From the sequence record MZ043897.1: a DNA stretch of 38,252 nt, one strand, 5' to 3'. Below, in pieces: positions 2,874-35,349 of this stretch. Under the pieces are notes generated by a model, which was not told the DNA's origin, ran no database searches, and saw only the letters and a program-made list of their open reading frames with translations. Numbering within the stretch: the first letter of the stretch is position 1; each line of letters starts with the position of its first letter. Source of the DNA: Escherichia phage E212. The position numbers and the translations under genes were made by a program.

Positions 2874-3060
2874 TACAATTTGTTCTAAAATGGGGTGATT
2901 TTTTATAACGCTTTGTATTTAATAGTGTTGTTTTTTAGCGTGGGTGTATCGCCTCGGCGATGTAAGGAGAGATCAGAATTGCGTGGTTTAGTGAGTTGTA
3001 TCTATTTATTTTTCAATAAATACATTTGGTTATGTGTCTTTAGGTGGGGGCGTGAGGCAA

Positions 3061-9918: not shown

Positions 9919-10208
9919 TGGCCAATCTACGCAAAGAAGCACGCGGCAGAGAATGTCAGGTACGTATTTACGGCGTATGCAATGGCAATCCTGAAACTAC
10001 AGTTCTGGCACATTACCGGATGGCTGGAATTTGCGGAACGGGAATGAAGCCTGACGACCTGATCGGCGCATGGGCTTGTAGCGCGTGTCACGATGAAATC
10101 GACCGACGCACCCATAATCTCGACAACAAAGACGCCAGACTTTACCACCTCGAAGGCGTGATCAGGACGCAGGCGATACTGCTGAAGGAGGGGAAGATTA
10201 AGCCATGA
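9918..10208 (+). CDS. YbcO-like (DUF1364) Cys/His-rich nin-region nuclease-like protein
   Basis: 96-aa ORF resembling DLP12 YbcO (RECQVRIYGVCNGNPETTVLAHYR...CSACHDEIDRR). Confidence 0.7.
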   Translation: MANLRKEARGRECQVRIYGVCNGNPETTVLAHYRMAGICGTGMKPDDLIGAWACSACHDEIDRRTHNLDNKDARLYHLEGVIRTQAILLKEGKIKP

Positions 10209-31350: not shown

Positions 31351-33156
31351 ATGACAGATTCAATAAATGCCAATGTTGTAGTGAGTATGCCTTCGCAACT
31401 CTTCACTATGGCGCGTTCTTTTAAAGCCGTAGCTAATGGCAAAATTTATATCGGTAAAATTGACACTGACCCGGTAAATCCTGAAAACCAGATTCAGGTT
31501 TATGTAGAGAACGAAGACGGTTCTCACATTCCTGTTTCGCAACCAATAATCATTAACGCTGCCGGATATCCGGTATATAACGGACAGATTGCCAAATTCG
31601 TTACCGTGCAAGGCCATTCTATGGCTGTTTATGATGCGCATGGTTCGCAGCAGTTCAATTTTCCCAATGTGCTGAAGTATGATCCTGATCAGCTTCGCCA
31701 GGAAATAACATCGACTGGAGATGGAAAGGGGGCTGACATGATACCCCTAACACAAGGAGGAACAATTCAGAATGCTGTGTTCGCAGTAACACCTCAGGCT
31801 TATGGCGCAACATGCGATGGTGTGGCTGATGACTCAGATGCTGTTGAAGAAATGATGGCAGCCTATCCAAATCATTTGATTATTACAATCCCACCTGGTT
31901 CAGTGCTTACAATTAAACGAAAGCTCGTATATGGAGGTAGGCGCTTTGAGATTCGTGGATATTCTGGCGATATGACTAATAAGGTTATAGGAGCGGAGTC
32001 AAGTCAATTATATTGTGACGTTCCTGGGGACTATGCTATTCAATGCGAAAATTCGGATGTTTTTTTATCTGATGTCATTGTAAAGGGAATTCCACAGTAT
32101 GGAAACGGTACTATCGGTACGAATAAAGGAATATCGACATTAAATGGTAATATTAAAACAAACCGCACTTCTTGGCTTGGGTTTGACGTTCCATGTCAAG
32201 GTATCAATTCTTTTTACGTAACATTTATAGATACAGATTGGCTTGCAATTAAAAATGGCCCAGATATACAGCGGGCATATAACATTAAGTTTATAGGCGG
32301 AAGATCTGTTGATTTTGATACATTTTTCAAAATATCAGGCGCTGCTGGTAATGGTCCGATTAATTTTATTGCCATGGCGTTTGAACGGTGGACGAATTAC
32401 GTTGTTGGTACTGATTCTGCTGCACTTATTCGACCGCAAAATATAGCGTTTAAATTTTGTTACTTTGAAAATATGGATGACCAATCTATTTATAACGGTC
32501 TTACTGGGCGGGGCGGTGCTGCAACTCCAGGTGATGCATTTTATAAAAAGTATGCTTATGCCCGCATACTGGTCGGTACGCCAACGTCTTTCAGCATGGA
32601 CGAAACTAACACTGTATATGCTAAAGGGCTTGAAAACGGATGTATAGCAATTGATTCTTGGGGTATACGAGATCTTGTGTTCAAGCCTAAAATTGTTACT
32701 CCAGCAGACTCATGGAATAGTAACCAGAGGCCATTAAGCATGGTTAGGGCAACCTATCTTGACCATGTCGATGTTTTTAATAATAACACCTCACCAGATG
32801 GTGACTTAGGGTTTCCATTTATATCATCTGATAACTCTACACTGTTACCAACAATAAGATCAGGCGTTGGTGTATCCCATGGGAAAACAGTATTGTTTAA
32901 TGGTTTCTACAATCAGACTATAACATTCCAAGATGTTCCAGCAGGTGTCAATGTATATCAAGATATAACAACAACAGAAAAGTTAGACATGGTAAATGCA
33001 AGTGTTAAGATAACATCAAGAAGTGCAGCTTCTGCTATTGCCACAACTCAATTGCAGGTGTTATCTTCAAATAAAATTCGCGTACACATAACAAATGGTC
33101 ACAGTAACCCTGTAACATTTTCTGTGGCAATTGTAATTCCATATTTATTCAAATAA
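31351..33156 (+). CDS. Tailspike protein (P22-like head-binding N-terminal domain, divergent receptor-binding body)
   Basis: N-terminal about 110 aa ([12 protein letters not shown]...[26 protein letters not shown]...[17 protein letters not shown]...VLKYDPDQ) match the P22 tailspike head-binding domain; remainder unrelated in sequence. Confidence 0.85.
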
Positions 33157-33189
33157 TCTAAAAGCCCATTACTGAGCTTTTTTATTTTC

Positions 33190-33213
33190 AGCACACCAAT
33201 CGAGGTGTGCTTT
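33190..33213 (+). terminator. Terminator-like hairpin downstream of the tailspike gene
   Basis: AGCACACC-AATCGA-GGTGTGCT 8-bp stem followed by TTGCAAAT (weak U-tract). Confidence 0.35.
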
Positions 33214-33693
33214 GCAAATAGCTTTAACATTTCTTCTATCAGCTAATAATCAAAGGCATGAAGTCTATCATCCAAGTCTCAATCGATCGATACTTGCTAT
33301 GGTTGATGAGACAAAACTTAGACACACAAAGCTTTGCACTGGATTACTAGGTTTTGTGCTCTTCGATAGTGTTTAAGGTGGATCACTCCACCTTTTCATC
33401 AATCCAGTCCGACCATCACTGCATCATTTCTCTGCGCTTAACGTAGCGGATGCCTCACTATCACACGGTGATGGTTCATTACTGCTTTGTAGAATGGATA
33501 GAGAACTGAGGATAAAAAGATATCCCAAAACCCCAAAATCTCATCTTTAGGATTTGCAGAAAGGGAGGCGTGAACAGATACCTGCGCATGAAGACGGAAC
33601 TAGTCCAGATGTGATATTTGTGGTGATCACATACATCATTAACGATGCTCGTTATGGTGAGTTTGATGACTACCCGCTGAAGTGAAAATTGTG

Positions 33694-33992
33694 TTGTGTA
33701 CCAAATTGCGTACCAAACTAAAATCACAAATCATGAAACCCTTGTTCATGGCGGTTCTCAGGGGCGTTTCGCGTAATCGTGAAAGAGGAAGGTAGGTTGT
33801 TTATCTGTGTCTGTCATTGTCTAGCATTGTCCACTGTAGTTAATTAACTGTCTGTTATAACTCGAAAAACAACCATTTTTTCACCTGAGTATGTCTACGA
33901 ACGTCAAATATAGTTGTTTACTGTGCGCTGTTGTCCATGTGATATTGTGTACCAGATGTGTACCAAACTATTATTTCTGAGCGTACCAAATA
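33694..33992. other. attP-like region: arm-type direct repeats (GTACCARAY, five copies) flanking a candidate core with a 12-bp perfect palindrome
   Basis: Repeats at 33698, 33710, 33949, 33960 and 33983; palindrome AGTTAATTAACT at 33838-33849; immediately upstream of int. Confidence 0.5.
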
Positions 33993-33998
33993 TTATTT

Positions 33999-35177
33999 AT
34001 GGCTATAAGCGACACAAAACTGCGTACTATTTATGGTAAACCATATTCGGGCCCACAAGAAGTGGCTGATGCCGATGGCCTCAGCGTACGAATTTCACCG
34101 AAGGGTGTCATCCAGTTCCAGTACCGCTATCGCTGGCATGGCAAGCCTAATCGACTTGGGCTTGGTCGATACCCATCCCTGTCTTTGAAGGATGCCAGAC
34201 AGATCACTGCTGACTTGCGAAAGCTCTATTTCTCAGGAACGGATCCACGCACCTATTTTGAAGAGAAGGTGGAGAACTCCATGACGGTCGCTCAGTGTCT
34301 CGACTACTGGTTCGACAACTACGTCTCTACAACTCTCAGAGAAAAGACCCAGGCACTTTACCGATCAACGGTTATGAAGCGCATGCATGACGCCTTTCCT
34401 AATCGTCCGGCATCTTCTATCACGGTTAAGCAATGGGTTGACCTGCTTACCGAAGAAGAAAGAGATAATCCACGCCGAGCAAGGCAGGTGCTAAGTCAAC
34501 TAAGATCAGCAATAAGTTGGTGCATGCGGCGTCAGTTGATAGATAGTTGCGCAATTATGAGCATCCAACCAAGGGACTTCGGCTCCCGCGCTGAGGTAGG
34601 GGATCGGGTACTGTCGTATCACGAACTGGCTAAGATTTGGCTTGCTATTGAAAGAAGCCGTGCGTCTACGTCAAATAAGCTCCTTCATCAGATGCTTATG
34701 CTGTGGGGGGCGAGGCTCTCAGAGCTTAGGCTGGCAACAAAGACAGAATTTGACCTGCTGGACAACGTATGGACCGTACCGAAAGAGCATAGCAAGATGG
34801 GTAATGTTATCCGCCGTCCAATCTTCGAACAAATTAAGCCTTTTCTCGAAAAGGCCATGACAACGTACAATGATGTTCTTTTCCCTGGAGAAGACATAAA
34901 CAAACCGATCAGCATCGCTGCAGCCAACCGATTCGTAAATAGAATAAGGGGAGGGATGGATCTGGGTTACTGGCGAACACATGATTTCAGAAGAACGCTT
35001 GTTACACGTCTGTCCGAGATGAATGTCGAGCCTCATGTTACTGAGCGAATGCTCGGTCATGAACTTGGCGGGATAATGTCCGTGTACAATAAACACGACT
35101 GGATAGAGGCTCAGCGCAAAGCGTATGAGCTTCACGCTGATAAATTGTTCTGGCACATCAGGAGCATTTCTGATTAA
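33999..35177 (+). CDS. int: Tyrosine integrase, P4-type (N-terminal arm-binding domain)
   Basis: N-terminus SDTKLRTIYGKPYSGPQEVADADGLSVRISPKGVIQFQYRYRWHGKPNRLGLGRYPSLSLKDARQ typical of P4-like integrase arm-binding domains; C-terminal catalytic region with HDFRRT and a conserved Tyr. Confidence 0.85.
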   Translation: MAISDTKLRTIYGKPYSGPQEVADADGLSVRISPKGVIQFQYRYRWHGKPNRLGLGRYPSLSLKDARQITADLRKLYFSGTDPRTYFEEKVENSMTVAQCLDYWFDNYVSTTLREKTQALYRSTVMKRMHDAFPNRPASSITVKQWVDLLTEEERDNPRRARQVLSQLRSAISWCMRRQLIDSCAIMSIQPRDFGSRAEVGDRVLSYHELAKIWLAIERSRASTSNKLLHQMLMLWGARLSELRLATKTEFDLLDNVWTVPKEHSKMGNVIRRPIFEQIKPFLEKAMTTYNDVLFPGEDINKPISIAAANRFVNRIRGGMDLGYWRTHDFRRTLVTRLSEMNVEPHVTERMLGHELGGIMSVYNKHDWIEAQRKAYELHADKLFWHIRSISD

Positions 35178-35349
35178 CGCCACCGTTAAGAATCCACCCT
35201 TCAACAGCTTCACGAAGGTATGATTTGGGGTGGGTTCTGACTGGCTTCGGAAATCCGTGCCGTTTGGTATAGTTCCAGATTGTCTGACGTGATGAAACAC
35301 CGAGCTTGTTCATCACTTCTTTCTCAGGAATCAGGCTGGTATCGGTCAT
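35158..35349 (-). CDS. AlpA/Xis-like small HTH protein (putative excisionase or regulator)
   Basis: 63-aa ORF; KEVMNKLGVSSRQTIWNYTKRHGFPKPV...EAVEGWI matches the AlpA-family pattern; RBS GGAG; 3' end overlaps the int 3' end by 20 nt. Confidence 0.6.
   Translation of the reverse strand: MTDTSLIPEKEVMNKLGVSSRQTIWNYTKRHGFPKPVRTHPKSYLREAVEGWILNGGVNQKCS

Follow-up and report, generated by a model that had tools for sequence, protein, structure and literature searches.

In the attachment site of phage lambda, the core is flanked by two arm sites to its left and three to its right (P1, P2 - COC' - P'1, P'2, P'3). The attP requirements of another phage, Phi24B, are described as poorly understood. 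Its attP fragments of 140, 237 and 350 bp are inactive, while one of 427 bp recombines, which places the minimal attP between 350 and 427 bp, and its integrase works without IHF (Mohaisen et al.). By 5'RACE, transcription of Phi24B int begins 46 bp inside the 1,245-bp ORF that had first been predicted for this gene (Fogg et al.). In KplE1, attL overlaps the integrase promoter, and it was demonstrated experimentally that IntS is repressed through P' sites overlapping this promoter; both Int and the RDF repress int. The attL of KplE1 also contains five TorI sites (GTTCG/GATCG/GTCCG), arranged in two blocks in the interval from the core to the P' sites. As for the phages that insert into sbcB, the core was published for Sf101 and 2851 (Sf101 paper), and prophages at this locus serve in the typing of E. 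coli O157.

The DNA analysed here, further referred to as the window, is the 38,252-base sequence of Escherichia phage E212 (MZ043897.1). It contains an attP of type 2851, targeting sbcB, of which the core, the target gene and the integrase have already been published or annotated. With high confidence, positions 33698-33991 represent the complete attP of a non-integrated P22-like phage, with the core at 33772-33784 and five repeats that the arm-binding part of the integrase is predicted to bind (Table 1). What is added to the existing knowledge is modest: a base-pair map of the likely arm sites (2+3 GTAC) and a phased series of GTYCA units, neither of which is mentioned in the database records or the literature compared (the original 2008 description of phage 2851 by Strauch et al. 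was outside this comparison). The map can be transferred directly to Phi24B, an Stx phage. In other respects the site is an ordinary, textbook-type attP.

Table 1. Features of the E212 attachment region (window coordinates) and Phi24B attP constructs placed on the Phi24B-type locus L118
Feature	Position	Strand	Sequence or product	Remarks
P1, candidate arm-type site	33698-33706	+	GTACCAAAT	counterparts at offset 0: GTACAAAA in L071/L191, GTACATAA in Phi24B-type L118
P2, candidate arm-type site	33710-33718	+	GTACCAAAC	12 bp start-to-start from P1
Core (crossover region O)	33772-33784 (13 bp)	.	CGTAATCGTGAAA	identical to sbcB codons (F)HDY on minus strand
Phage-borne sbcB 5' end	33772-33817	-	MTDTDKQPTFLFHDY	ATG at 33817-33815; in-frame fusion to host sbcB in lysogen
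Block A, 10-bp-phased GTYYR units	33799-33854 (33799, 33809, 33819, 33829, 33839, 33850)	+		candidate RDF or bending-protein sites
12-bp palindrome	33838-33849	.	AGTTAATTAACT	probably incidental
Block B, 10-bp-phased GT units	33893-33937 (33893, 33903, 33913, 33923, 33933)	+	GTCTA (33893), GTCAA (33903), GTCCA (33933)	candidate RDF sites and/or int promoter -35 region
P'1, candidate arm-type site	33949-33957	+	GTACCAGAT	GTAC invariant in 20/20 aligned loci
P'2, candidate arm-type site	33960-33968	+	GTACCAAAC	by homology overlaps int promoter -10 region
P'3, candidate arm-type site	33983-33991	+	GTACCAAAT	8 bp before int ATG
int	33999-35177	+	tyrosine integrase, P4 type, 392 aa	Pfam Arm-DNA-bind_3 and Phage_integrase; PHROG 1 integrase
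xis	35158-35349	-	AlpA/HTH_17-like excisionase (RDF), 63 aa	weak Pfam AlpA/HTH_17 matches; PHROG 66 excisionase
attP237 (Phi24B)	L118 2150-2386			P1, P2, core; no P' repeat; does not recombine
attP350 by primers (Phi24B)	L118 2111-2460			P1, P2, core, P'1; without P'2 and P'3; does not recombine
attP427 (Phi24B)	L118 2066-2492			all five repeats; ends 1 bp after P'3; recombines

Integration genes and the int promoter

A P4-type integrase gene had been proposed directly downstream of the repeats in the initial annotation, which was made from the sequence alone, and it is indeed there: the ORF starts at 33999, and its product has the Pfam architecture of this type, with Arm-DNA-bind_3 at residues 4-85 (E 8e-18) and Phage_integrase at residues 204-366 (E 1e-16). 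The motifs HDFRR and VYNKH are seen in its translation. The xis gene is convergent with int and overlaps its end; its product is 47% identical to the experimentally validated Xis of Phi24B.

The sigma-70/terminator scan of positions 33100-34100 revealed no promoter-like site, and a more lenient promoter scan gave only 8-of-12 matches on either strand; thus, neither the int promoter nor an outward sbcB promoter can be placed from the sequence alone. The 1,245-bp ORF of Phi24B corresponds to positions 2426-3670 of the homologous locus L096, which puts the transcription start of int near 2472, between P'2 and P'3 and about 12 nt after the start of P'2, so the P' repeats sit on the int promoter and leader. 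By homology, the int promoter of the window would span roughly 33936-33972. Since P'1-P'3 sit on this predicted promoter and the 5' leader, Int probably represses its own gene via these three sites.

Candidate arm-type sites

The five GTACCARAY repeats reported initially, two on the left and three on the right, were all found (33698, 33710, 33949, 33960 and 33983). They are the only matches to this motif in the window, all of them on the plus strand and within 294 bp, and in a repeat search they come out as copies of a longer unit, approximately TGYGTACCAAAY. P1 and P2 are located 74 and 62 bp to the left of the core, and P'1-P'3 177-211 bp to its right, the gap between the core and P'1 being 165 bp.

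Integrases 55-74% identical to that of E212 were found in Buttiauxella, Erwinia, Pantoea, Tatumella, Rosenbergiella, Rahnella, Orbus, Gilliamella and others, and many of these loci lie beside the 5' end of sbcB, with the interval to the int start unchanged at about 212 bp. When 20 such loci from approximately ten genera (Int 57-100% identical) are aligned, the GTAC of the three int-proximal repeats is invariant, and the DNA between the repeats is essentially randomised. The bases following GTAC differ by lineage (GTACCAAA, GTACAGAA, GTACATAA), usually changing together within one locus. The sequence GTCCATG..ATATTG upstream of P'1 is also conserved in the relatives. A degenerate two-repeat pattern searched against IMG/VR recovered true P arms, as well as about 25 matches in unrelated coding sequences (e.g., a helicase-like gene), which were discarded.

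The best single test of the arm-site reading is the intact attP L071/L191 in IMG/VR, which is accompanied by an integrase 73% identical to that of E212. Its repeats have offsets of 0, 12, 251, 262 and 285, with the core at 74, which are the offsets of the window; all five repeats carry GTACA instead of GTACC, indicating a concerted change on both arms, and the spacer of the P arm is barely alignable. The 12-bp spacing of P1 and P2 is kept in L071/L191 (GTACATAA) as well as in L118, a locus of the Phi24B type (GTACGGAT). Position, the constant GTAC and the concerted change support the earlier suggestion that the repeats on both sides are of arm type, and, judging from this comparison, the five repeats are very probably the arm-type sites of the integrase.

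It is improbable that the GTAC repeats are instead operators through which some other regulator (Xis/AlpA, a phage repressor or a host factor) controls the int promoter. This might be suggested by the overlap of P'1-P'3 with the likely int promoter and leader, but two of the copies are 250 bp away, beyond the core, where there is no promoter to regulate, and their distance is conserved to the base pair in the 73% identical relative. Moreover, the 2+3 geometry matches the arm sites of lambda and KplE1, the integrase has a dedicated arm-binding domain, and the GTYCA repeat family described below is a better candidate for RDF binding than the GTAC repeats.

Two other loci seem to carry degraded forms of the site. 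In Klebsiella sp. BIGb0407 (L032, around 2925-3000), an int gene with 59% identity has no normal start codon, and upstream of it a single GTACCAAAT repeat is accompanied by five or more tandem GTTCACT units of 7 bp, which looks like a decayed or rearranged P' arm. In L189 (IMGVR_UViG_2864700891_000004), a P arm (GTACATAA/GTACATAA) is found from position 9996 on, together with an sbcB-type core and a P' arm that extends for its initial ~75 bp, after which the sequence diverges and contains neither P' repeats nor int; this is an attP remnant of an L071-type phage.

Phased units between the core and the P' sites

The DNA between the core and P'1 contains two blocks of units in 10-bp phase, the second of which (block B) ends just before P'1. 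GTCCA, GTTCA and GTTCG are the most enriched 5-mers of this stretch (17 loci; z 9-12) and often form exact 10-bp runs. The ATTGTC repeats noticed initially between the arms are present in two copies (33816 and 33826) and are part of a TGTC run (33808, 33812, 33818, 33828, 33849); both copies, together with the palindrome discussed below, lie in block A.

By analogy with the TorI sites of KplE1, the phased GTYCA units are most likely binding sites for the AlpA-type Xis or a bending factor, and a host bending factor or intrinsic curvature is a possible alternative. The reading as Xis sites is one of analogy only, because TorI and the Xis of the window are not detectably similar. A scan for the IHF consensus WATCAANNNNTTR gave one match at no more than one mismatch versus 0.57 expected, i.e., nothing above chance.

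Genome context of the attachment site

In phage EC.P3, the last 400 bases of the window run directly into its first 400, with 100% identity. The window therefore represents the whole phage genome, circularly permuted and free of host DNA, and attP is expected to be intact in it. Its genes follow a P22-like order and include those for terminase, portal, coat, a tailspike with a head-binding domain, and early genes. Both flanks of the attachment region are of phage origin, the tailspike gene being upstream and int, xis and early genes downstream, and no sbcB or dacD sequence is adjacent to it. The region had been taken for an intact attP rather than attL or attR, and this assignment holds: bacterial chromosome was looked for beside the arms, and phage genes were found on both sides.

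It is very unlikely that the region, instead of being a free attP, stems from a bacterial chromosome, either as attL or attR at the end of a prophage or as a junction of tandem prophages. The full P-O-P' arrangement does occur in three E. coli chromosomes, O157:H7 MB9-1 among them, but the continuity of the window termini in EC.P3 and the exclusively phage gene content in P22-like order, with no adjoining sbcB or dacD, argue against such an origin of the E212 sequence. In the MB9-1 chromosome (NZ_CP040107.1, 2014991-2015431; L194 4001-4441), P-O-P' is located between nleG7, at the end of one prophage, and int of the next one. This looks like two prophages in tandem at sbcB, an arrangement seen in 3 of the 592 E. 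coli genomes with matches to the region.

The attachment region is 100% identical to that of EC.P3 and 97-99% identical to those of mEp234, Sf101, HK140, HK544 and the Stx2c phages 2851 and 1717, and the DNA of the att-int module is 97.4-100% identical to that of EC.P3, mEp234, Sf101, HK544 and 2851. The closest record, EC.P3 (PQ657771.1, 33,378 bp), is 100% identical where aligned, is about 4.9 kb shorter and matches in four pieces; an insertion or deletion in one of the two distinguishes this record from the E212 window. The DNA to the left of approximately 33615 (33400-33615) is common to mEp234, Sf101 and EC.P3 and is absent from HK140, HK544 and APC_JM3.2; thus, the shared att module begins about 83 bp left of P1. 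Just outside the module, other phages and prophages carry variable cargo, e.g., UmuD/HumD-like genes.

No tRNA-like 3' end had been recognised in the region initially, in agreement with the scan of the whole window for tRNA and tmRNA genes, which found none, and with the Rfam scan of 33100-34200, which gave no family at threshold. The reason for this is that the integration target is a protein-coding gene. A P4-type attP directed at a tRNA, with a core corresponding to a tRNA or tmRNA 3' end, can thus be ruled out, there being no tRNA in the window and the core matching sbcB.

The crossover core and its target

The crossover falls in the 13-bp identity block at 33772-33784, which matches the 5' coding end of sbcB. 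A four-way alignment compared attP (the window), attL of two lysogens, attR of two lysogens and attB, the last taken from MG1655, where the site is empty. Nothing but this block is common to all of them; to the left of it attP matches attR, and to the right it matches attL. The same 13 bp are annotated as 'prophage attachment site (type 2851)' in the GenBank records of mEp234 and HK544, and as an insertion-created duplication in the record of the Stx2 phage 1717.

Matches to the region were found in 592 of 5,426 complete E. coli genomes. Most of them are split into a left piece, which ends at window position 33801 and adjoins dacD, and a right piece, which starts at 33772 and adjoins sbcB; accordingly, sbcB is found beside attL and dacD beside attR in the prophage flanks. 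The 30-bp overlap of the left and right pieces is explained by the sbcB start, of which the phage has a version of its own. Inverted repeats, considered as possible core-type sites, can be seen by eye around the core both in attB (GTTTC-N8-GAAAC) and in attP (TTTC-N10-GAAA); since their geometry differs between the two, no cleavage positions are derived from them.

The initial annotation had regarded a perfect 12-bp palindrome as the candidate core. The palindrome is present, although such palindromes are not unusual (four in the window versus a mean of nine in shuffled sequences), and it is not the core, as the crossover is 54 bp to its left. The search of host genomes that had been proposed as a check gave the same answer, the chromosomal matches breaking at 33772 and 33801 and not at 33838. 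An exchange of strands within AGTTAATTAACT, flanked by the arm repeats, would suit its place roughly midway between the two repeat clusters, but it is hardly credible any longer, being already refuted by the junction alignment: the palindrome is kept in attL with all DNA rightwards from 33772 and is absent from attR and attB. Its symmetry is also lost in L071 (TGTTCGTTAACT; Int 73% identical) and in more distant relatives.

Dinucleotide-preserving shuffles of the window contained 0.64 GTACCARAY matches on average and 3 at most, none having five or more; the motif was defined after the data had been seen, and the real test is its conservation in relatives, which it passed. The chance that the repeats are accidental, or remnant duplications without function, is negligible: the motif was picked after viewing the sequence, and its looser two-repeat form also matched those ~25 unrelated coding sequences in IMG/VR, but five matches on a single strand within 294 bp are far from the 0.64 expected, and the GTAC columns are invariant over 20 divergent loci while adjoining columns vary.

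The phage-borne 5' end of sbcB

With respect to the window, sbcB is read from the minus strand. The similarity of attP and attB does not end at the core: over approximately 35 bp to its right it is still about 70%, and in this DNA the phage supplies an N-terminus of 15 residues, MTDTDKQPTFLFHDY, in place of the native MMNDGKQQSTFLFHDY (read from attB/attR). The reading frame of sbcB is restored in lysogens. In the lysogen L005, for example, PGAP annotates a full-length, intact sbcB that starts in phage DNA. The QPTF(L/Y)F sequence and an in-frame start codon (ATG, TTG or GTG) are kept in 21 lineages, and the differences are mostly synonymous, a pattern of retention that indicates selection for a functional sbcB. 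It appears that sbcB stays intact in lysogens, with its N-terminus and upstream region coming from the phage. As the phage substitutes the start of the gene, the promoter region of sbcB is replaced in lysogens by P'-arm DNA.

A model of integration and its implications

Based on these data, the following scheme can be suggested. The integrase would act as a heterobivalent protein, its catalytic and core-binding domains contacting the core and the N-terminal Arm-DNA-bind_3 domain contacting the five repeats. Int monomers would bridge arm sites and core, and attP would be folded into an intasome, as in lambda, with strand exchange occurring within the 13-bp identity CGTAATCGTGAAA shared with sbcB. 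Integration would then leave sbcB'-attL-int at one end of the prophage and P arm-attR-native sbcB start-dacD at the other end. The native start of sbcB would be cut off by this event, and the P' arm would provide a new start codon and the 15-residue N-terminus, leaving sbcB intact. Int bound at P'1-P'3 probably limits its own transcription, while excision is probably driven by the binding of Xis, a product of the early-left operon, to the phased units.

The integrase family of 2851 and Phi24B consistently targets the 5' ends of genes and carries a replacement 5' end, which is mildly unusual. It is conceivable, though doubtful at present, that the members of this family are 5'-end specialists (sbcB in Enterobacterales and Orbales; argW for Phi24B), whose P' arm carries a selected replacement 5' end with upstream DNA, so that lysogeny swaps the promoter region of the host gene. 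If so, the replacement would consist of a start codon and an N-terminus or of the first 24 nt of a tRNA, and the host promoter region would become phage DNA packed with Int and Xis sites. The expression of exonuclease I could then come under phage control, and the arm map would also explain the unusually large minimal attP of Phi24B.

Comparison with known systems

The type-2851 phages (Stx2c phage 2851, Stx2 phage 1717, Sf101, mEp234, HK544 and HK140) have a core identical to the 13 bp of E212, and their att-int-xis DNA is 97-100% identical. E212 differs from them in that the module resides in a P22-like podovirus backbone closest to that of EC.P3. Arm-type sites are not described in the records of the type-2851 phages or in the Sf101 paper (the term 'arm-type' has 0 occurrences), where only the 13-bp core is marked.

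The integrase of Phi24B (vB_EcoP_24B), which is grouped here with the argW-inserting Stx2a phages (Stx2-86, P27, VT2phi_272), is 56% identical to that of E212, and the Phi24B excisionase is 47% identical. The Phi24B-type attP also has 2+3 direct repeats of the GTAC type, with 12 bp between P1 and P2, 11 bp between P'1 and P'2, and 24 bp between P'2 and P'3 compared with 23 bp in E212. In L118, whose integrase is 97% identical to that of Phi24B, P1 and P2 are at 2205 and 2217, the core occupies 2282-2305, and P'1, P'2 and P'3 are at 2449, 2460 and 2484. In both phages int points away from the core, its promoter (predicted in the case of E212) is within the P' arm, and integration takes place at the 5' end of a host gene, for which the phage supplies a replacement. 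The differences concern the core, which in Phi24B comprises 24 bp of the 5' end of the tRNA gene argW and in E212 13 bp of sbcB, and the arms, which carry GTACA/GTACG in the Phi24B type versus GTACC in E212. The Phi24B-type crossover sequence TTATATCCATTTAACTAAGAGGAC (L118 2282-2305; L096 and L100 upstream of int; Phi24B itself, L195, 17-40) corresponds in reverse complement to nt 1-24 of the tRNA-Arg gene argW, so that this phage family replaces the argW 5' end and upstream region. The 3' end of the same tRNA gene is occupied by KplE1/CPS-53.

The attP constructs of Mohaisen et al. were placed on L118 by mapping their primers (Table 1). The outcomes for attP237 and attP427 fit the arm model. 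The primer list and the plasmid table agree for attP600, attP427 and attP237, whereas attP350 has arms of 171/155 bp by the former and of 187/139 bp by the latter. In the version of the plasmid table, attP350 keeps all five repeats and yet fails to recombine, so this construct is not decisive for P'2 and P'3; if that version is the true one, additional distal DNA would be required for the recombination of Phi24B.

The IntS-TorI modules of KplE1 (CPS-53), HK620 and Sf6 have three P' arm-type sites just upstream of the int ATG, as predicted for E212, and Int and the RDF are transcribed separately in KplE1 as well as in E212. In E212, int runs away from the core, the predicted P' sites are on its promoter, and the RDF gene is transcribed separately, which are the features of a KplE1-type module. 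KplE1 differs by its target, the argW 3' end, and by the sequence of its arm sites; besides, the E212 integrase is only 22% identical to IntS, and the comparison of Xis with TorI (E 1.1) reveals no detectable similarity. The KplE1 module is thus a functional analogue of that of E212, not a close homologue. Lambda shares with E212 a heterobivalent integrase and the 2+3 layout of arm sites, predicted in the case of E212. However, lambda int is co-transcribed with xis from PL, unlike int in modules of the E212 type, IHF is needed, attB measures 21 bp, and no host gene has its end replaced. Taken together, Phi24B is the closest characterised homologue of the E212 integration module, and KplE1/HK620/Sf6 and lambda are its closest mechanistic analogues.
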